The notes beneath the pieces were generated by a model. That model was given only the letters and a program-made list of their open reading frames with translations, was not told where the DNA came from and searched no databases. Shown here one piece after another: positions 15,906-24,529 of a DNA stretch of 64,000 bases. The number at the start of each line of letters is the position of its first letter. Position 1 is the first letter of the stretch. The position numbers were made by a program, and so were the translations under genes. The stretch lies in IMG/VR virus record IMGVR_UViG_3300021399_000098. One strand, written 5' to 3'. Source of the DNA: a virus (taxonomy: Duplodnaviria; Caudoviricetes).

Positions 15906-17564
15906 ATGGTAGATAAAAAAGCAAAATTCATTGAAAAGTCTAAAAATAGGCATGGTGATAAATACGACTATTCTAAAGTGGAATATATTGATAGTTTAAC
16001 AAAAGTATGTATCATATGCCCCATTCATGGCGAATTTTGGCAAACTCCACAAGGTCATGTAAGGGGTCAAGGTTGCCCAAAATGTGCAAACATCAAAAGA
16101 GGTGATACATTTAGGTCTGATGGTGATACATTCATTAAACGTGCAACTGTTTTGCATGATGGTAAATATATATACGATAAAGACTCTTACATTAATGCAA
16201 TGACAAAAGTTCCAATACTTTGCTTAAAGCACGGAACATTCTGGATGACTCCAATGAATCATCTACTAGGTCAAGGTTGTCCTAAATGCAGTGGTAGGGG
16301 GTTAAACACTGAAGAGGTTATAGAACTGTTTAAGGAGAAACATGGCGATAGCTATGATTATTCCAAAGTTGTATTTACTAAAATGCATGAAAAGGTTTGT
16401 ATAATATGCAAAGAACATGGTGAATTCTGGCAAACCCCTAGCAAGCATCTTTTAGGTCAAGGATGCCCAAAATGCAGTGGTATTAAAAAAGCAAAAGAAA
16501 GGACATTAACAACAAATGATTTTATTGAAAAATCTTCGAAAATTCACAACAATAAATACGTTTATGACAAAACAAAATATAAAGGTACATATGAATCGCT
16601 TACAATAACTTGCCCCATTCACGGAGATTTTACGCAAAGGGCGAATGACCACCTCAATGGTCACGGATGCCCAATATGCGGCAACAATATGTCGCTTGCT
16701 GAGAAAGAAATTGAAGATTATGTTAAATCTTTTGGTGTTAAAACTGAAACTAAAATTAGAGGCATACTAAGCAATAATAAAGAAATTGATATATTAATAC
16801 CAGAATTAAACATAGGAATTGAATATAATGGCTTAAAATGGCACTCTGATGAATTTAAAGATAAAAATTATCATCTAAATAAAACAGAAGAATGTAAAAA
16901 ATTAGGAATACGACTTGTTCATATCTTTGAAGATGAATGGATGAATAAAAAAGAAATTGTTAAAAGCATTATACGCAATATAATCGGTAAAACTGAAAAT
17001 AAAATATATGCTAGAAAATGTATCATTCAAAATGTTAATGACAATGAGAAAAAAGAATTTTTAGAAAAAAATCATATACAAGGAAATATTAATTCACAAA
17101 TAAATTTAGGACTATATCACGATGGTGAACTAGTATCACTAATGTGCATCGGTAAACCTAGAATCAATTTAGGCAGAAAAACATCATTAGAAAATGAATA
17201 TGAACTCTTACGTTTTTGTAATAAACTTAATACAAATATTGTTGGCGGTGCAAGTAAACTATTTAAATATTTTATAACAAACTATAGTCCAACGCTAATA
17301 ACATCCTACTGCGATTATAGATGGAGCATTGGTAATATGTATGAAGCATTGGGATTTACTTTATCCCATCTTTCACAGCCAAACTACTATTACATAATTG
17401 GCAATAATAGAAAAAATAGATTTAAATATAGAAAATCAGAATTAATTAAAGAAGGTTTTGACCCAGAAAAATCAGAAAAAGAAATAATGGAAGAAAGAGG
17501 AATACACCGAATATACGATTGTGGGTCATTGGTATATATATGGAAAAATGAGGATAGAAACTAA
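15906..17564 (+). CDS. Putative homing endonuclease (four Cys/His zinc repeats plus a Hef-like PD-(D/E)xK nuclease)
   Basis: 4x YDYSK..C..HG.F....H..G.GCP.C; EIDILIP..IGIEYNGLKWHS; HIFEDEW; YELLRFC; RIYDCG. Confidence 0.8.
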   Translation: MVDKKAKFIEKSKNRHGDKYDYSKVEYIDSLTKVCIICPIHGEFWQTPQGHVRGQGCPKCANIKRGDTFRSDGDTFIKRATVLHDGKYIYDKDSYINAMTKVPILCLKHGTFWMTPMNHLLGQGCPKCSGRGLNTEEVIELFKEKHGDSYDYSKVVFTKMHEKVCIICKEHGEFWQTPSKHLLGQGCPKCSGIKKAKERTLTTNDFIEKSSKIHNNKYVYDKTKYKGTYESLTITCPIHGDFTQRANDHLNGHGCPICGNNMSLAEKEIEDYVKSFGVKTETKIRGILSNNKEIDILIPELNIGIEYNGLKWHSDEFKDKNYHLNKTEECKKLGIRLVHIFEDEWMNKKEIVKSIIRNIIGKTENKIYARKCIIQNVNDNEKKEFLEKNHIQGNINSQINLGLYHDGELVSLMCIGKPRINLGRKTSLENEYELLRFCNKLNTNIVGGASKLFKYFITNYSPTLITSYCDYRWSIGNMYEALGFTLSHLSQPNYYYIIGNNRKNRFKYRKSELIKEGFDPEKSEKEIMEERGIHRIYDCGSLVYIWKNEDRN

Positions 17565-17986: not shown

Positions 17987-18012
17987 AAGGTACTGATTAA
18001 CGTCAGTACCTT
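17987..18012. terminator. Bidirectional intrinsic terminator
   Basis: aaggtactga-ttaacg-tcagtacctt flanked by A/T runs. Confidence 0.7.
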
Positions 18013-18070
18013 ATTTTTTATTTCCTGTGTCAGTTAATACCTTATCACTTTCCAAAAATACTTTCTTGAA
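18011..18070 (-). pseudogene. Stranded, synonymously diverged copy of the last 19 codons plus stop of gene 18772..19164
   Basis: Translates to FKKVFLESDKVLTDTGNKK*, identical to that gene's C-terminus; no in-frame ATG before an upstream stop. Confidence 0.9.
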
Positions 18071-18222
18071 AAGAAATGCACGAATCTGCAAGACTAATAG
18101 AAATCTTGCATATTTTTTGTATCTTTTTTTTACTATACAATTCCATAACAGAGTATATTACGTCTTGGTATACACATCATAATACAGCATAAAAAAAGAG
18201 CAACCACTGCTGATTACCCTTT

Positions 18223-18654
18223 TTATGCACGATATACATGTATGTTTTGAAGGTGGAATTTTGAAAGTCTTGGGTAATTTTCTTTTGACCATATTACCAC
18301 AACAAAATCATTATTTCTAAACGAATGTGAATCGTCTTTTTCGTCAAATCCCAAATAATTCATTCCATATTTTTGTTCTAGTAATTCTTTAATAAAATTA
18401 AAGTCAAGAACAGCTCCTTTGTCATATATATTATAAAACCCATATTTATCTTTTAAATCTTTTACAATACTAGATTCCAAATCATCTTCATCTTCTGCCA
18501 TACATGCAGCATTTAACTCATCGTCATCTAAAATTCCTGTAATGTTTCTAATTTGCTTATTTGTTAAATCTATTTCGCTCAATATTCTATTTACCGACTC
18601 TTTTACAATTCTATGAAGGTCTCCTTCTGTTAATCTTATGAGTTTCTTATTCAT
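18223..18654 (-). CDS. Hypothetical protein with N-terminal IRLTEGDLHRIVKESV tag
   Basis: Start refined to MNKKLIRLTEGDL; motif shared with the genes at 27088, 57222 and 63144. Confidence 0.75.
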   Translation of the reverse strand: MNKKLIRLTEGDLHRIVKESVNRILSEIDLTNKQIRNITGILDDDELNAACMAEDEDDLESSIVKDLKDKYGFYNIYDKGAVLDFNFIKELLEQKYGMNYLGFDEKDDSHSFRNNDFVVVIWSKENYPRLSKFHLQNIHVYRA

Positions 18655-18771
18655 ATTATATATACATATTTGATTCATTATTTTTAAATAATATATAAGC
18701 AAATGCAGAAAAATGCAGTAATTTATGACTGCATTTGCATAGTGTTTACTACCAATAAGTATATAAGTTCA

Positions 18772-19164
18772 CTATTTTTTATTTCCTGTATCAGTAAGAA
18801 CTTTGTCTGATTCTAGAAACACTTTTTTGAAAAATTCGTACAAGCTTGATGTAGGGTGGTCTGCATATTTCTTTAAACCTTCAATTGCTGTTTCCCTGAT
18901 TTTACCGATAATTGGCTCATGTTGGATGACCTCTTGAGCGTGCATTGCAATCTCTTCCTCAGAGTCACCTTGACCCATCATTTGCTGTTGCTGTGGCTGA
19001 ACCATACTTGGGTCTGGTTGCTGCTCTTCTCCCATTTCTGGAGACATTTCCATACCCATTCCATCATCCATTGCGCCCTCGTCACCATTGAATATATAAT
19101 CCTCTGAGAGTTGTTTCTTCAAAGTTTTCAACTCTTCTAAAACATTCTTAAAATTCTTTTTCAT
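18772..19164 (-). CDS. Hypothetical protein (Met/Gln/acid-rich) between sheath and tube
   Basis: 130-aa ORF; TATTTATA motif at 19187-19194. Confidence 0.8.
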   Translation of the reverse strand: MKKNFKNVLEELKTLKKQLSEDYIFNGDEGAMDDGMGMEMSPEMGEEQQPDPSMVQPQQQQMMGQGDSEEEIAMHAQEVIQHEPIIGKIRETAIEGLKKYADHPTSSLYEFFKKVFLESDKVLTDTGNKK

Positions 19165-19264
19165 AATTAATAAACGTTTATTTCTATATAAATATTAATT
19201 AACGTTAAAAATATTGCTATATATTTGGCCAATTCAATTTTTTTTAATATCTTTGCAAAAAAAT

Positions 19265-19810
19265 ATGGATAAAAAGGAACTATTAATATCAAAAGGTAAA
19301 CACCTTGCTTTCCTTTTAAGACATGATAAGGAAGCATTAGATAATGGTATAATTGACCATAATGGTTGGAGAAATGTTTCAGAACTAATCAAAAATCAAG
19401 GATATACAAATGAAATTCTTGAAGAAATAGTCGAAACAAATAACAAGAAACGTTATGAGTTCAATGAAGCCCATACCAAGATACGTGCAAGACAAGGGCA
19501 TTCAATTAATGTAGATGTTGGATTAACTGAAACAATACCGCCTAATATATTATATCACGGAACGTCAACAAAGGCATTAGAATCGATTTACAAGCGAGGA
19601 ATCCTAAAAGGTGAAAGATTATACGTTCACTTGTCAAAAGACGAAGAAACAGCCTTAAAAGTGGGTTCTAGACACGGTACGCCATATGTACTACTAATTG
19701 ATTCTGAACAGATGTATGAGGATGGCATAAAATTCTACTTATCCAACAATGGGGTTTGGCTAACTGATTACGTTGATGCTAAATACATAAAAAAAGAGGA
19801 AGATTATTAG
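19265..19810 (+). CDS. kptA: RNA 2'-phosphotransferase (Tpt1/KptA family)
   Basis: LLRH, NNKKRY, IRARQGHS, LYHGT, VHLS, NGVWLT; TATCTTTG promoter at 19248. Confidence 0.92.
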   Translation: MDKKELLISKGKHLAFLLRHDKEALDNGIIDHNGWRNVSELIKNQGYTNEILEEIVETNNKKRYEFNEAHTKIRARQGHSINVDVGLTETIPPNILYHGTSTKALESIYKRGILKGERLYVHLSKDEETALKVGSRHGTPYVLLIDSEQMYEDGIKFYLSNNGVWLTDYVDAKYIKKEEDY

Positions 19811-19840
19811 TCTCCCTCTTTTTTATTTAGTATATTTCAA

Positions 19841-20887
19841 TTAAATATCATCGAATGAAACACCCTCTATTTTCTTTTTTAATTGTTCCATATTATTACA
19901 AACATTATCATTTGTGTAAAGTCCATCAAACTTTTTGCTAGACTTATAATAAGGTACTGTATTCTTTTTTGGGATATAATATAACAATTTTATCCCTTTT
20001 TCTTTACATAACTTATTTTTATACAAGTCTCTATGCAAATTTTTCTCAAATTCTTCCTCAGCCCATTTTTCTCCTCTCCCAGCAAAATCTACTGATTTAA
20101 AATGCTGTCTCCCTTGACATTCTATTGCAACATTTTCTTTAACAAGATAAAAATCAAGTGAATTTTTATTATTAGTCTTATCGTATCTATATTGACTAAT
20201 AAAATCAATTTTATTTTCTAATAGCCAGTTAAAGACCTCTTTTTCTAACTTACTTTGAGCACAATGAGGACACCCCCTACCTCTTAAATGGTTATTTGGA
20301 GTAACATAAAATATCCCATGTTTTTTACATATCACTGGTATTTTTGTTCTATTATTGGAATATTTAGTAAACAATGAATAATCATATAAATCTCCATAAA
20401 CATTTTTAAATTGTTCTTTAACATTATCCACTGTTAATCTCCCTCTACTATCCCATATTCTTTTACATTTACATTTAGGACAACCTTGACCACGAATGTG
20501 GTCTACTGGTCTTTGCCAGAATTCACCGTGTTCTACACCATTTTCGTCTTTTTCATGGCAAATTATGCATACATTATTATGTGTCCCATTTACTTCAGAC
20601 TTTGAATAATCATACCTCCCATCATGAACTTTTTTTGCTTCATTGATAAATGATTCAGTTGTTCTCTTGGCATTTCCACTACAATATGGACATCCATGTT
20701 TTCTATTTATGTGATGGTCAAAATCTTGATAAAAAACACCATGTTCAATACCATTTTTATCTTTTTCGTGACACACAATTGGATATTTTACTCTGTTATT
20801 TTTGTACTCATGGATTAACGAATAATCATATTTGTGATTATGAATTTCATTTGCTTTGTCTATTACTTTTTCTAAATTACATTTCAT
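19841..20887 (-). CDS. Putative homing endonuclease (three Cys/His repeats plus a PD-(D/E)xK domain) ending in a copy of the sheath C-terminus
   Basis: 3x HG.F....H...GCP.C; SKLEKEV, LDFYL..VAIECQGRQHF; C-terminus EGVSFDDI*. Confidence 0.8.
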   Translation of the reverse strand: MKCNLEKVIDKANEIHNHKYDYSLIHEYKNNRVKYPIVCHEKDKNGIEHGVFYQDFDHHINRKHGCPYCSGNAKRTTESFINEAKKVHDGRYDYSKSEVNGTHNNVCIICHEKDENGVEHGEFWQRPVDHIRGQGCPKCKCKRIWDSRGRLTVDNVKEQFKNVYGDLYDYSLFTKYSNNRTKIPVICKKHGIFYVTPNNHLRGRGCPHCAQSKLEKEVFNWLLENKIDFISQYRYDKTNNKNSLDFYLVKENVAIECQGRQHFKSVDFAGRGEKWAEEEFEKNLHRDLYKNKLCKEKGIKLLYYIPKKNTVPYYKSSKKFDGLYTNDNVCNNMEQLKKKIEGVSFDDI

Positions 20888-20987
20888 ACTTCCTTCTATT
20901 TTAATATAAATAGTTACTAAACTCAAAAACCACTCCTTCTGGTGCAAAGATATGTAATATTTTTTTAATAAACAAATTTTTAGCCAA

Positions 20988-21023
20988 AAAAAAAACTAGA
21001 AAGACTATCTTTCTAGTTTTTTT
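20988..21023 (-). terminator. Terminator after the sheath gene
   Basis: A-run, ctagaaaga-cta-tctttctag, T-run. Confidence 0.65.
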
Positions 21024-21049
21024 ATTGGTTTATTTGATTCTATCAAATA

Positions 21050-24000
21050 TTAAATATCGTCAAAAGAGACCCCCTCTGGGGATAAAATAAAATCGATTGT
21101 TATGTACTCAAGAGCATTGTAAGGCTTGAAGTAAATCTTACATGGAAGCTCTCTTCTCTCTCTTGACTCGATTGAGTCGTTAACCTCGATTCTGTAGTCT
21201 GAGATACCTCTGTTGCCTCTGATGCTATCCAAAATTGGAGTTACAGTTGAAATGAATGACTGCTTAACTGTTGCATCATTTGGTTCAAAGATTAAACCGA
21301 TACATGAAATTGCAATAAGCTTTCTCAACCTTAGAAGCAATCTACGAACTGCGATTCTATTAAGTTGTGACTCATTAATCTGCAAGTTCTTTTGACCCCA
21401 AATCTTTGGACCGTCTTGCGCAAAGGTCTTAACTGGGTTAATTCTACCATCGTACAATACATCCTCGTCAGCCAACTTAGTGATGAAGTGTGCTCTTACG
21501 CAATCAACATTACCACGCTCAATACCTGCTGGTGCGAACCAAGGCCATGCTGTGTTATCAGTCTGTGCGAAGTTTCTAACTGCATCCTTTGTAGGTGGTA
21601 AGTAAATGTATTGATTGTTATCAACATCCAAATACTTAACCCAAGGATAATATGTACATGAATAGTTAGAATCAATTTCAGTGTCCTCTAGGTTATAAAC
21701 TGCATCCTCTGGTGTATACATTTCATCAACGAAATCATCTGCACCACTTGGCTTATCAGGAGTTGTTATAACATAGATACTGTCAGCTCTTTCCTCTTCA
21801 ATCATTTCGATTGCCTCTTCTACAAGAAGCTTCTGATTTACATAGTCAATACCTGGAGTTGCAAATACGTTAATATCTGTTGCCTCTGGTGTTGCGAACT
21901 GTCTAATACCGCTCAAGTAAGCATACCAGTCAGATGTGATACCATTCTGATTCAACTGTAGAAGCTCAGGATTCATAATCTTACTGAATGCATAACCCTC
22001 ACCACTGTTTTGGTTGATATAACCTCTGTACTGTGACATCTTGAACTTGTCAGTGTTGGTTCTCTGGTCTCTGTAAACATCCCATCCATCGAATCCTCCA
22101 TAGAAGAATACAGTGAATTTACGAAGATTTACATACTCATAGATTGAACCATACATGTTCTCTTCCTTGTCAATGATAGGTGCTCTGTCAAGAACTTGTG
22201 TTCTAGCATTAGTTGAAACGCTATCGAATACATATCCATACTCTCCATCAACAGTGACAGAACCACTTGATACACCACCATTGGCATAATCCAAACGGCT
22301 ATCTAGATGGAAGCCATGAGAAAGGAATTCAGGTTCATTAATATAAGTCATATTACCCTTGAATGTGAAGTTATCAATGTCAACTCCTACCCATGAAGAA
22401 AGTCCAAAGTATTGCTTTCTATTCTTAATATCTTCATCGAAGTCTCTATTGTACTTGATTGTTGGGAATGAAACTCCTTCCAATGCATCACCTGCGATTG
22501 GAGTACCACTGTACATTGGAATTGGATAACCCAAGAAGCCTGCTGGTACTGAATTCTTAGCAGCCAATGTATCATTTACCTCAACAGTGATGAACTTTGA
22601 CTTAGACTCATATACACCATCAAATGAACCAATCTTGAATGCTATGTAATTTGAATCACCTGGAACCATTGAGCATCTTCCAAACTTCTCAAGTGGGATG
22701 ATTGATTCATCAAGGTCATCAATTCTACGTACTACAACGTCAAATACGCCCTCATCAGGTCTAATGTTCTCAATAGATACCTTAACCTCGTAGTTAGCAT
22801 TGTCACCGTCAGAAATGGTGTGGAATCTGAACAACTTGTTAACCTCAACTTTCTCCAAGTCACCCTTCAAGTTAGAAACAATCCAAGGAGTAGAAGCATA
22901 TCTGTAAGCTGACTTATAATCATTCATATCAAACTTAACATAAGTAACATTAGATTCATCGTCATCCATTCTATAATATAAGCCGTCTGCCTTGTTGTAA
23001 ACCAATGTTGAAGTGTTACTAGTGTTGCCTTTAGTGCCACCATACTTCAAGTTACCGTAGTAGTTAACCTTATCTGATTCACTAGTAGCACTAGAAGTTC
23101 CGCTAGTAACGCTATCTGCGGTATAATAAGTATATAAATACTGTCTCTTACTGTCTTGTGTGGTATATTGCTTTACAGTATAAATCTGTCCAACCTTAAT
23201 TGCTTCTTGAACAACATCATTAGCTACATCTGTCCAAGCTGAAGAAGAAGAAACTAACTCGTATCCTGTTGGGATTGTTGGACTATCGATTTCCTTCTTT
23301 GGTCTATTACTCCAAGTTAAATATTCGGTTGTGGCTGTTGTCAATCCACTTGTTTCTGAAGTATTTCCTTTCCATTGATAGTTCCATTTTATCATCTTTT
23401 CTTCATCAGCACATTGTACTCCTGTAGTAGCAGTTTGGTCTAGAACATATGCATCCTTAAGTATTTGTGGATTGTTGCTGCTAAAGATATAAGGTGTACA
23501 TAAGATACCCTTGTCGCTTGCATTATTATCTGCCAAGTATCTCATACCAACGTACTTTCTAGTAAGTGCCGTATGAGGAATTGTCATTAATGCACTAATT
23601 GGCTGATGCCAACAATAGTCAGCGATTGCATATGCTTGAACACCAACTAATGTGCTATCAATCTGATTAAGACTAAGTGCTGCAATACCTTGCTCAAGTG
23701 CAACGTCATAAAGAGACTCGACATAGATTGGTGAATCACCATTATCTGCCTTTGTACCCAAAACCTTTAAGATATATTCCTTATCCTCTGGGTTTAAACT
23801 CACTGCATATTCAAAATAACCACTATCACCACTTGAAGGTGTGGTATTGTCCGCATGAGGGCCTTTTATACCTTTAATCTTGAATCTTCCTCTGTTGGTC
23901 TGTGAAATTGACCATGAGCCAGCACCGCCAGACATGCTATGACCATCGCACTCATTACCACTGTCAGTCATTGGAATGTATTCTGAAATCGTCAATGCAC

Positions 24001-24529
24001 TTAAATTGTATGTGTTCTTAACGCAATCAGAAGCAGAATTACCACTTACCTCTCCGACTTCATATTGTAGAACATCATACTTGCTAGGTTCACAAGTACA
24101 AGCTGTGGTTGAGCCTGTCTTATATAAATCGTATCCACCTCTTGAACGTAGGACAACAACTGCTTGTCTGTCACTATTACCTCCATTTGATGCCGTTACA
24201 ATCCATGCAGGACCTGCGTTGTAACCACTTAGACCAAGTACACGCACAACTTTAAGTTGCTCACTTTCAGTCAAATATGACTTAGCAATGTAAGGCAACT
24301 CGTATTTAGGATATTTACTTCCCTTGAATTTCTCTGTACTTGTTCCACCAAACATTTCTTGGAACTCACGCCAGTTAGCAATGTCCATTGGCTGAAAAGC
24401 TGGACCTTTTAGGGTCTCACCAACAACACCAAGTGTTGTGATACCAAGACTACGGACAGCGTAAGTCATGTCTATCTCACGAGTATAAATACCTGGTGAA
24501 ACATGTATTCCTCTTGCATTATCTGCCAT
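21050..24529 (-). CDS. Tail sheath protein (contractile tail)
   Basis: VSPGIYTREID, GETLKGPAF, PWFAPAGIERG, RINPV, IWGQKNLQ, LNRIAVRRLL, FEPND. Confidence 0.95.
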   Translation of the reverse strand: MADNARGIHVSPGIYTREIDMTYAVRSLGITTLGVVGETLKGPAFQPMDIANWREFQEMFGGTSTEKFKGSKYPKYELPYIAKSYLTESEQLKVVRVLGLSGYNAGPAWIVTASNGGNSDRQAVVVLRSRGGYDLYKTGSTTACTCEPSKYDVLQYEVGEVSGNSASDCVKNTYNLSALTISEYIPMTDSGNECDGHSMSGGAGSWSISQTNRGRFKIKGIKGPHADNTTPSSGDSGYFEYAVSLNPEDKEYILKVLGTKADNGDSPIYVESLYDVALEQGIAALSLNQIDSTLVGVQAYAIADYCWHQPISALMTIPHTALTRKYVGMRYLADNNASDKGILCTPYIFSSNNPQILKDAYVLDQTATTGVQCADEEKMIKWNYQWKGNTSETSGLTTATTEYLTWSNRPKKEIDSPTIPTGYELVSSSSAWTDVANDVVQEAIKVGQIYTVKQYTTQDSKRQYLYTYYTADSVTSGTSSATSESDKVNYYGNLKYGGTKGNTSNTSTLVYNKADGLYYRMDDDESNVTYVKFDMNDYKSAYRYASTPWIVSNLKGDLEKVEVNKLFRFHTISDGDNANYEVKVSIENIRPDEGVFDVVVRRIDDLDESIIPLEKFGRCSMVPGDSNYIAFKIGSFDGVYESKSKFITVEVNDTLAAKNSVPAGFLGYPIPMYSGTPIAGDALEGVSFPTIKYNRDFDEDIKNRKQYFGLSSWVGVDIDNFTFKGNMTYINEPEFLSHGFHLDSRLDYANGGVSSGSVTVDGEYGYVFDSVSTNARTQVLDRAPIIDKEENMYGSIYEYVNLRKFTVFFYGGFDGWDVYRDQRTNTDKFKMSQYRGYINQNSGEGYAFSKIMNPELLQLNQNGITSDWYAYLSGIRQFATPEATDINVFATPGIDYVNQKLLVEEAIEMIEEERADSIYVITTPDKPSGADDFVDEMYTPEDAVYNLEDTEIDSNYSCTYYPWVKYLDVDNNQYIYLPPTKDAVRNFAQTDNTAWPWFAPAGIERGNVDCVRAHFITKLADEDVLYDGRINPVKTFAQDGPKIWGQKNLQINESQLNRIAVRRLLLRLRKLIAISCIGLIFEPNDATVKQSFISTVTPILDSIRGNRGISDYRIEVNDSIESRERRELPCKIYFKPYNALEYITIDFILSPEGVSFDDI

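Follow-up and report, generated by a model that had tools for sequence, protein, structure and literature searches.

In the mobile-ORF (mORF) 'gene hybrids' of fungal mitochondria, described for atp6 of Allomyces macrogynus and for atp6, atp9, cox2 and nad3 of Glomus (PMC3630166), an essential gene is interrupted towards its 3' end by an endonuclease gene. The insert bears a substitute C-terminal segment whose differences are mostly synonymous, while the displaced native end lies downstream of it and is almost the same as in uninvaded relatives. Here, we analysed a 64,000-nt stretch of viral DNA (Caudoviricetes; IMG/VR record IMGVR_UViG_3300021399_000098; hereafter the window) in which a cassette at the 3' end of the tail sheath gene shares these features. 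The mORF-type criterion, that the stranded end is closer than the working end to uninvaded relatives, was met in the window. However, mORFs are usually in phase and co-transcribed with the upstream gene, a criterion not met by the phage cassette, in which a separate stop and terminator close the substitute end and the endonuclease has a promoter-like box of its own. The native end of a mORF hybrid is a dead remnant, whereas that of the phage cassette is fused to the endonuclease as its C-terminus. The enzymes also differ (LAGLIDADG or GIY-YIG in mORFs, Vsr-like in the cassette), as do the hosts, fungal mitochondria and a giant phage. The parallel with fungal mitochondria drawn in a preliminary description, which was made from the sequence alone, held in layout, with these differences.

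Within phages, the T4-type MobA element (mobA with the gene 60 bypass; bioRxiv 10.1101/2022.08.31.505936; PMC2988022) resembles the cassette as a homing-endonuclease element whose insertion point lies within essential coding sequence. It brings along 'homR', a divergent version of the host segment that holds its own nick site, and several phage clades that also have empty-site relatives bear the element at the same place. But MobA splits a topoisomerase gene, deletes the native segment and needs a protective translational bypass, whereas the sheath gene is whole, with no deletion and no translational recoding, and its native segment has become the end of the endonuclease. The seg and mob endonucleases of T-even phages (PMC2988022) are likewise free-standing, lie beside essential genes, vary among relatives and are expected to co-convert their flanks, but they sit between genes or split them, unlike the sheath cassette; the string 'duplicat' is absent from the text of that T4 review. 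I-Bth0305I, of the EDxHD (Vsr-like) family (PMC3239194), provides with its catalytic domain one of the two best fold matches to the nuclease domain of the sheath enzyme, Vsr being the other, and both phage enzymes have a conserved gene as their target, by inference in the case of the sheath enzyme. However, I-Bth0305I is intron-encoded, and the DNA-binding part of the sheath enzyme is a string of DUF723/DUF4379 zinc ribbons. Engineered 'home-and-rescue' gene drives (PMC7968924) resemble the cassette in cutting an essential gene and carrying a cut-resistant, respelled rescue copy, but they are synthetic, Cas9-based and made for insects, and the resemblance is one of design only. In the literature searched, we found no published phage endonuclease with both a substitute gene end and a retained native end, homR of MobA being the nearest case.

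We interpret the locus as a free-standing homing-endonuclease cassette lodged in the 3' end of an essential tail-sheath gene (probability about 0.75), with cleavage, self-immunity and homing inferred. The features of the locus are listed in Table 1.

Table 1. Features of the sheath locus in the window, from the sheath gene to its right flank.
Feature	Position	Strand	Basis
Tail sheath gene, intact	21050..24529	-	1159-aa ORF; PHROG 23 tail sheath 1.7e-53
Inserted mobile cassette, 1209 nt	19868..21076	-	Empty-site blastn alignment to L023
Replacement sheath end (EGVSFDDI + stop), cassette-borne	21050..21076	-	5 synonymous differences from old end
Intrinsic-terminator-like hairpin, A and T runs on both sides	20989..21023	-	Cassette-carried, just 3' of replacement stop
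Promoter-like TAnnTTTG box, 5' of endonuclease gene	20945..20952	-	Read from sequence
Degenerate third sheath-end copy in endonuclease leader, across insertion junction	20913..20945	-	20/33 match to endonuclease-free target
Homing-endonuclease gene, 348 aa	19841..20887 (from ATG)	-	PHROG 559 1.6e-55; Pfam DUF4379, DUF723
Original sheath end, now last 8 codons + stop of endonuclease	19841..19867	-	27/27 nt identical to L035 sheath end
Original sheath terminator, shared with converging Tpt1 gene, now the endonuclease's	19790..19824	-	Hairpin
RNA 2'-phosphotransferase (Tpt1/KptA) gene, right flank	19214..19810	+	Pfam PTS_2-RNA 4.8e-42

The sheath and endonuclease ORFs end in the identical peptide EGVSFDDI followed by a stop. 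The two 27-nt ends differ at five positions, all of them synonymous and at third-codon positions. Among the 517 stop-to-stop ORFs of at least 40 aa in the window, only two pairs have a C-terminal 8-mer in common, namely the sheath and endonuclease and a pair at 18011. The Pfam profile Phage_sheath_1C matched sheath residues 1054-1147 with 26.2 bits, slightly below the 26.9 cut-off, and there were 80 related loci. The C-terminal motif is retained even among sheaths that are 50% identical.

The spelling of the two ends differs. In the sheath body, GGG encodes none of 86 glycines and TCC none of 94 serines, while GTC accounts for 6% of valines and ATA for 9% of isoleucines. When codon typicality was scored in sliding windows, the final 8 and the final 17 codons of the sheath ranked in the bottom 0.4%, and the atypical patch reaches upstream to about 21103. 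The endonuclease's copy has the sheath-preferred codon at each position (92nd percentile). Replacement ends use codons that are missing from the sheath body and common in the endonuclease gene.

To locate the insertion, the window was aligned by blastn with the endonuclease-free relative L023. The left flank aligned up to the sheath stop and the right flank resumed at the old end; nt 973-1001 of L023 aligned twice, one 27/28-nt stretch matching both copies. The sequence 3' of the endonuclease stop, with the terminator and the converging Tpt1 gene, is that found 3' of the sheath stop in L023. The terminator hairpin is homologous to hairpins 3' of the sheath stop in L023, L024, L075 and L027, and the Tpt1/KptA gene lies 28-38 nt beyond the sheath stop in L008, L012, L017, L019, L023 and L024. 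Filled and empty sites were paired for the window/L023, L009/L008, L016/L055 and L013-15/L011, the last three in other downstream contexts. Close relatives with otherwise collinear flanks thus either have or lack the cassette at a single exact position.

The cassette entered 8 codons 5' of the original sheath stop, and its boundaries can be slid within the 27-nt duplication (19841-21049 is equivalent). It consists, in order, of the replacement sheath end, the terminator, the promoter-like box and the 348-aa endonuclease ORF, which continues through the original sheath end. Between the sheath gene and the endonuclease gene lie a stop, a terminator-like hairpin and the promoter-like box. Comparison with the empty sites shows that the cassette provides a substitute sheath end, stop and terminator, and the sheath protein is therefore unchanged, with the same eight residues in the window and one or two replacements in other lineages. 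It also shows that the endonuclease gene came without a stop codon and continues in frame into the stranded sheath end, borrowing its stop and terminator. Equivalent hairpins follow the replacement end in other cassette lineages, and the TAnnTTTG motif and its position are kept in all of them. The box may be the promoter of the endonuclease, an inference from the known Bacteroidota -7 consensus. In the endonuclease leader, the degenerate third copy of the sheath end matches the endonuclease-free target best at its 5' end (12/13). It could not be upheld as a statistically secure feature on count alone, with six other 20/33 matches in the window; a related element occupies this position in other cassette lineages.

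Endonuclease-free relatives carry the old-type end. The sheath end of L035 matches the endonuclease tail at 27/27 nt and the window's new end at 22/27, and L003, L008 and L025 differ from the tail at one position. None of the 16 endonuclease-free alleles compared has the full new-type spelling of the window. L011/L034 and L055 lack the endonuclease and have patches of cassette-type spelling, which are possibly loss footprints or resistant alleles. The replacement-type spelling was rejected as ancestral, because none of the 16 alleles has it in full and the patched loci resemble cassette-bearing ones either in the atypical codon patch or in their context. A near-identity DNA search with 3.5 kb found no match among GenBank phages, and protein searches of GenBank phages found only distant relatives, below 40% identity.

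These comparisons bear on the preliminary description. Both sets of coordinates and both sequences it gave for the duplicated end held, as did its claim that the endonuclease copy uses preferred codons and the last ~17 sheath codons atypical ones. Its prediction that endonuclease-free relatives carry the old-type end also held, and the result that would have refuted it, relatives without the endonuclease bearing the window's sheath spelling, was not seen in full at any endonuclease-free locus, with patches of cassette-type spelling in L011/L034 and L055. The proposal that the sheath 3' end had been replaced with a recoded copy was supported with a qualification. The replacement end is better seen as a diverged sheath end that moves together with the cassette, and less well as recoding of the resident copy, because about 25 nt of natural sheath-downstream spacer and a terminator of its own accompany it. 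The claim that the old end serves as the endonuclease's C-terminus is true for reading frame, stop and terminator, while the peptide itself is disordered in the structure prediction. Finally, invasion of an essential gene without splicing is supported by comparison, but self-immunity and cleavage are only inferred.

The same layout was found in at least eight diverged endonuclease lineages that form one clade. Of 120 cluster representatives of the endonuclease family, 21 have a sheath-type tail, and these group with three tail-less members in one clade (support 96/80). Four further endonuclease variants each lie directly 3' of a sheath gene. Diverged lineages share the replacement end, natural-class spacer, terminator and promoter box as a unit. 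We consider a single origin and long persistence of the tail-bearing endonucleases likely. An assembly artefact was ruled out by the same layout in many independent metagenome contigs. In every lineage the ORFs examined at the loci are intact, although the tail is shifted in P0012, a representative of the family.

To compare divergence, working sheath ends were set against the endonuclease-free consensus. They differed at 5-9 of 24 nt in fused loci and at 0-5 in free alleles (Mann-Whitney p = 5e-4, shared ancestry uncorrected), whereas an upstream control stretch showed no difference between fused and free loci (p = 0.43). Changes in the replacement ends include D to S, S to N and D to E, within the motif kept in sheaths of 50% identity, and the appended end in each lineage keeps the common sheath spelling. 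The appended end of L016 is exactly the sheath end of the related endonuclease-free L012, and its downstream context is that of L055; the endonuclease of L013, 94% identical to that of L016, lies in a different downstream context. This comparison suggests that the appended end follows the recipient genome, which we regard as likely. In L085, the appended end is an L013-type replacement end and the sheath carries yet another version, which hints at repeated invasion.

The endonuclease comprises three treble-clef zinc-ribbon modules and a Vsr-like nuclease domain (AlphaFold2 model, pLDDT 88). In the fold search it matched Vsr (1cw0, 1vsr) and the catalytic domain of I-Bth0305I (3r3p) best, with probability 1.00 and TM by target of 0.53-0.67. 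D245, E256, Q258, H262, D287 and K290 are near-invariant, D245, E256, H262 and D287 being conserved at 90% or more. The motif reads E-x-Q-G-x-x-H, with separate conserved Asp residues; that of the EDxHD family is a composite E-D-x-H-D on a Vsr-like fold. The match to Pfam DUF559 is weak (E = 0.19), and a sequence search against solved structures returned nothing at E up to 1, including 3r3p; the relationship emerged only from the fold search. The tandem zinc-ribbon modules have been shuffled between endonuclease lineages. Sequence and fold predict a nuclease domain with conserved catalytic residues and a DNA-binding part; cleavage itself is inferred. The last six residues have pLDDT under 50, and the appended eight residues are probably a passenger with no role of their own in the enzyme.

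We considered three other explanations. In the first, the replacement end and spacer came from a phage lineage in which the endonuclease first sat between genes; they were co-converted, never recoded under selection, and immunity was a by-product. The ~25 nt after the replacement stop in L005, L009, L013 and L016 do resemble the natural spacer class of L003, L004, L020, L026 and L073, and the fungal mobile-ORF cases were interpreted in this way (PMC3630166). However, the sheath ends of natural alleles in that spacer class are unremarkable, replacement ends differ from lineage to lineage, they carry substitutions at residues conserved in 50%-identical sheaths, and they use codons missing from the sheath body and common in the endonuclease gene. 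Together, these four points indicate divergence after capture; we regard a foreign allele as unlikely.

The second explanation is a passive scar, in which a single illegitimate insertion with a short target duplication left an immobile element whose copies differ by neutral drift. The single clade of tail-bearing endonucleases fits one junction event, and the lineages are old. But drift is expected to erode the stranded copy and not the working end of an essential gene, and the reverse was observed. The related L013 and L016 endonucleases lie in different downstream contexts with the appended end matching the context, L085 shows a second invasion round, ORFs are intact apart from the P0012 tail, and nuclease residues are conserved. 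We regard a passive scar as very improbable. The third, a functional tail in which the appended peptide serves the endonuclease (for example in docking or regulation) and is kept by selection on the enzyme, would fit a frame kept in all lineages despite a 9-nt length difference just upstream, appended-end differences that are synonymous except in conversion patches, and the short acidic motifs with F-D/E that end many other family members, but we regard it as extremely improbable: the last six residues are predicted to be disordered, one cluster representative has a shifted tail, and the variants of the appended end have counterparts in natural sheath alleles (I for V, N or Q for D) and agree with the local genome context, as expected if each recipient supplied the tail.

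Under the homing-cassette reading, the enzyme would cut endonuclease-free sheath alleles during mixed infection, at or near the junction in the conserved last codons. The break would be repaired from the cassette-bearing genome, with left homology provided by the sheath body and right homology by the retained original end together with any sequence 3' of it. The carrier itself would not be cut, because of the respelling of its working sheath end and because the original end there no longer has the upstream half of the site. Divergence of the two 27-nt repeats would slow loss of the cassette by repeat recombination.

Several observations stand against this mechanism. The original end is intact in the carrier, and immunity therefore needs a recognition site that reaches upstream of the junction, which we assume. 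The window's replacement end has merely 5 synonymous changes; I-Bth0305I tolerated most single substitutions (PMC3239194), and flanking polymorphisms alone failed to block nicking by T4 MobA (bioRxiv 10.1101/2022.08.31.505936). For homologous repair, a right arm of 27 nt is short. The endonuclease lineages are 67-78% identical to each other in amino acids and their sheath genes about 89%; the enzymes being more diverged than their sheaths, much of the history may therefore be vertical descent with ordinary recombination.

A bolder reading, tentative and put forward only as a joint claim, treats these cassettes as naturally occurring 'home-and-rescue' drives, with the final eight codons of an essential structural gene contested in an arms race. 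The rescue end of a lineage would resist that lineage's own endonuclease, and lineages with reshuffled zinc ribbons may re-target older rescue ends, as L085 suggests. The native end may be retained as a portable right homology arm, giving entry into any phage with the conserved sheath end whatever its downstream sequence, and the third copy in the leader would be a self-repression operator.

On the homing-cassette reading, the locus represents a route for a homing endonuclease into an essential phage coding region without an intron, intein, gene splitting or ribosome bypass. Its target, the C-terminal motif kept in sheaths of 50% identity, is a sequence with little freedom to vary in the phage. 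In annotation, such insertions can be recognised by a stranded gene end and by an endonuclease with a 'borrowed' C-terminus. The natural series, with its empty sites, its eight or more cassette lineages, its possible loss footprints and its second round of invasion, could serve the study of specificity, immunity and life cycle on real alleles. The system is also a natural counterpart to engineered rescue-type gene drives.

We found that the tail-sheath gene and the endonuclease ORF 162 nt downstream of it both terminate in EGVSFDDI and a stop codon, and that the two 27-nt copies have five mismatches, all at third codon positions, as the preliminary description had reported. Among the 517 stop-to-stop ORFs of the window, a C-terminal 8-mer is shared only by this pair and by a second pair near 18011. 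Ranked by codon typicality against windows of the sheath, the final 8 and final 17 codons both score in the bottom 0.4%. This end contains GGG and TCC, both absent from the sheath body, together with the rare GTC and ATA, and in the endonuclease's copy every position has the preferred codon. The earlier claim of an atypical sheath end and a preferred-codon copy thus held by these counts. The codons that are atypical for the sheath are those commonly used in the AT-rich endonuclease gene (28.7% GC versus 38.9%). The respelling also produced a small G+C hairpin, CCCC-AGA-GGGG, which is common to the window and the lineage of locus L013 and is lacking in endonuclease-free alleles.

Coordinates of the features discussed (L numbers, related IMG/VR sheath loci)
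Feature	Sequence	Position	Strand	Remarks
Tail-sheath gene	Window	21050-24529	minus	1159 aa; PHROG 23 at 1.7e-53; Pfam Phage_sheath_1C just below cut-off
Endonuclease ORF	Window	19841-20887 from ATG	minus	348 aa; PHROG 559 at 1.6e-55; Pfam DUF4379 and DUF723 Zn-ribbon modules
Insertion	Window	19868-21076		1209 nt
Sheath-end hairpin	Window	21069-21083	minus	
Cassette terminator hairpin	Window	20989-21023	minus	
Conserved TAnnTTTG box	Window	20945-20952	minus	
Third sheath-end copy	Window	20913-20945	minus	Degenerate
Old sheath terminator	Window	19790-19824	minus	Now 3' of the endonuclease
Second endonuclease	Window	15906-17564	plus	552 aa; PHROG 559 at 1e-173
18011 case	Window	18011-18831	minus	
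Gene ending LTDTGNKK	Window	18772-19164		
Inserted gene	Window	18223-18702		
Repeated gene end	Window	18011-18070		
Post-sheath spacer insert	L007	5226-6860		
Post-sheath spacer insert	L073	5243-6703		
Post-sheath spacer insert	L021/L022	from ~5180		
Post-sheath spacer insert	L004	5084-6094		
Twice-invaded locus (likely)	L085	2290-3517		

IMG/VR was scanned with the C-terminal 360 aa of the sheath, yielding 80 loci, about 40 of them at 75-100% identity and many on ~410-kb contigs. The sheath end of the endonuclease-free L035 is identical to the endonuclease tail (27/27 nt), and those of L003, L008 and L025 have one mismatch each, so the predicted old-type spelling in endonuclease-free relatives held. 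The endonuclease stop is followed by a terminator hairpin and a converging Tpt1/KptA gene, and the same sequence lies directly 3' of the sheath stop in L023, with more distant versions of it at this place in L024 and L075. With blastn, the window aligned to L023 in two blocks. The first covers the sheath through its stop, the second begins one base ahead of the old end and continues into Tpt1, and L023 positions 973-1001 are used twice. Such a pattern marks an insertion of 1209 nt with a direct duplication of 27/28 nt on its two sides. Three further filled/empty pairs were found in other downstream contexts (L009/10 with L008; L016 with L055; L013-15/28 with L011/34). L011/L034 and L055 have cassette-type patches without an endonuclease, possibly footprints of loss via repeat recombination, or else resistant alleles.

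In the L005, L009, L013 and L016 cassettes, the ~25 nt after the replacement stop resemble a natural class of sheath-downstream spacer; the window's own spacer is more diverged from it. Past the spacer, all lineages have a terminator hairpin, a TAnnTTTG box, a conserved leader and the endonuclease gene, in that order. The endonuclease gene supplies no stop codon itself: its frame continues into the old sheath end, and the old terminator comes next. Equivalent boxes stand ahead of endonuclease genes in L005-L086. The box fits the Bacteroidota -7 promoter consensus, and this resemblance hints at a Bacteroidota host for these roughly 410-kb phages. Just past the box, the leader holds a third, degenerate version of the sheath end that straddles the insertion junction (20/33 positions matched, 12/13 at the 5' end). 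A related element occupies the same place in the other lineages, and differing Zn-ribbon sets accompany retention of different halves of this copy; it might be an operator or a relic.

The same layout and right junction were found in four lineages of the first locus set (window/L001; L005/6; L009/10; L013-16/28), whose endonucleases are 67-78% identical over aligned residues. A sheath-type tail ends 21 of the 120 cluster representatives of the endonuclease family. In a nuclease-domain tree computed without this tail, the 21 form one clade (support 96/80) together with three tail-less members, and four additional variants looked up all lie immediately 3' of a sheath gene (4/4). The fused junction therefore arose once.

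Many diverged family members have a short acidic C-terminus, (P/Q)-(E/L)-L-(P/S)-(F/L)-x-F-(D/E) (representatives P0036, P0038, P0043, P0052, P0054, P0055, P0057, P0079, P0086, P0090, P0095, P0101-P0103, P0105, P0114 and P0115), which could be native and serve for docking, or could derive from a different target gene whose end was borrowed. Just past the sheath stop, the spacer is a hotspot for other ORFs or unfused endonucleases of the same superfamily, the latter of 486-544 aa with a terminal motif unlike the sheath end. The L007 sheath end is respelled at 7/24 nt with no fusion present.

Over its final 24 nt, the working sheath end differs from the endonuclease-free consensus at 5-9 positions in fused loci and at 0-5 in endonuclease-free loci (Mann-Whitney p = 5e-4, uncorrected for ancestry), and a control stretch 48-96 nt upstream is similar in both (p = 0.43). 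Several replacement ends have amino-acid changes (D to S, S to N, D to E, D to N, P to A) within the C-terminal motif G-x-S-F-[DE]-[DN]-[IV], which is retained in sheaths of only 50% identity. Appended ends show only the kind of variation found among natural sheath alleles, and they track the local genome: that of L016 equals the L012 sheath end and its context is shared with L055, and the L013 endonuclease, 94% identical to that of L016, sits in a different context. The copies also exchange sequence, as the L013/14 appended end includes a patch with the sequence of the replacement end in the same cassette. L085 has an L013-lineage replacement end (EGVNFEDI) as its appended end and a further variant (ESVNFEDI) as its sheath end, which likely reflects a second invasion, of an allele that a previous cassette had left behind.

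The phage endonuclease family is very large (6476 database relatives at E <= 1e-10). No sequence match to any solved chain was found, and the DUF559 match is weak (E = 0.19). An AlphaFold2 model from 56 sequences has high confidence (pLDDT 88), but its final six residues fall below 50. In fold comparison it matched best to Vsr endonuclease (1cw0, 1vsr) and to the catalytic domain (3r3p) of I-Bth0305I, a phage homing endonuclease, with probability 1.00 and TM-scores by target of 0.53-0.67. D245, E256, Q258, H262, D287 and K290 are at least 90% conserved. Each lineage carries three Zn-ribbon modules whose identity varies, and comparable reshuffling has been reported in other phage endonucleases bearing DUF723-type modules (PMC10448857). 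The window's second endonuclease of this family has an additional C-terminal region with weak Mom-like and REase_MTES_1575 matches.

In the 18011 case, the last 19-20 codons of the gene ending LTDTGNKK are repeated behind an inserted gene, which begins with the multi-copy peptide KKLIRLTE(S/G)DLH and lacks an endonuclease signature. Here too, the stranded copy has the relatives' common spelling and the working copy is diverged. In L011/L034, the LTDTGNKK gene end is duplicated around a reverse-strand endonuclease.

Taken together, the insertion, the duplication, the co-travelling unit, the single origin of the junction and the asymmetry of the copies are shown. This supports the structural and evolutionary parts of the preliminary description, in which the endonuclease brought a replacement sheath end and took the old end as its own terminus. 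Its cleavage and self-immunity part remains inferred, with no activity data for any member. The enzyme would cut empty sheath alleles near the junction, and the cassette would be copied in during repair, with homology arms provided by the sheath body and by the native end that was kept, although 27 nt is a short arm. The carrier would owe its immunity to the respelling of its working end and to the absence of the upstream half-site from its native end; mismatches between the repeats may also shield the cassette from deletion. Two precedents advise caution about immunity: I-Bth0305I tolerates most single substitutions (PMC3239194), and polymorphisms alone did not block nicking by MobA (bioRxiv 10.1101/2022.08.31.505936).

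The closest match is the mobile ORFs of fungal mitochondria, which create gene hybrids: a C-terminal segment and an endonuclease ORF are inserted, and the native end, left stranded, matches that of uninvaded relatives (PMC3630166). However, the fungal endonuclease usually shares the phase of the gene upstream of it, whereas that of the phage cassette appears to be expressed on its own and is fused to the native end on its downstream side. T4-type MobA likewise bears a diverged replacement ("homR") of a host segment, but MobA elements split the gene, remove the native segment and depend on bypass. A review of T4 mobile elements covers intergenic, intronic and gene-splitting endonucleases without mentioning duplication (PMC2988022), and no published phage case of this layout was found in the literature searched. 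Engineered home-and-rescue drives follow an identical logic (PMC7968924), and the sheath cassette comes with unusually rich natural comparative material.
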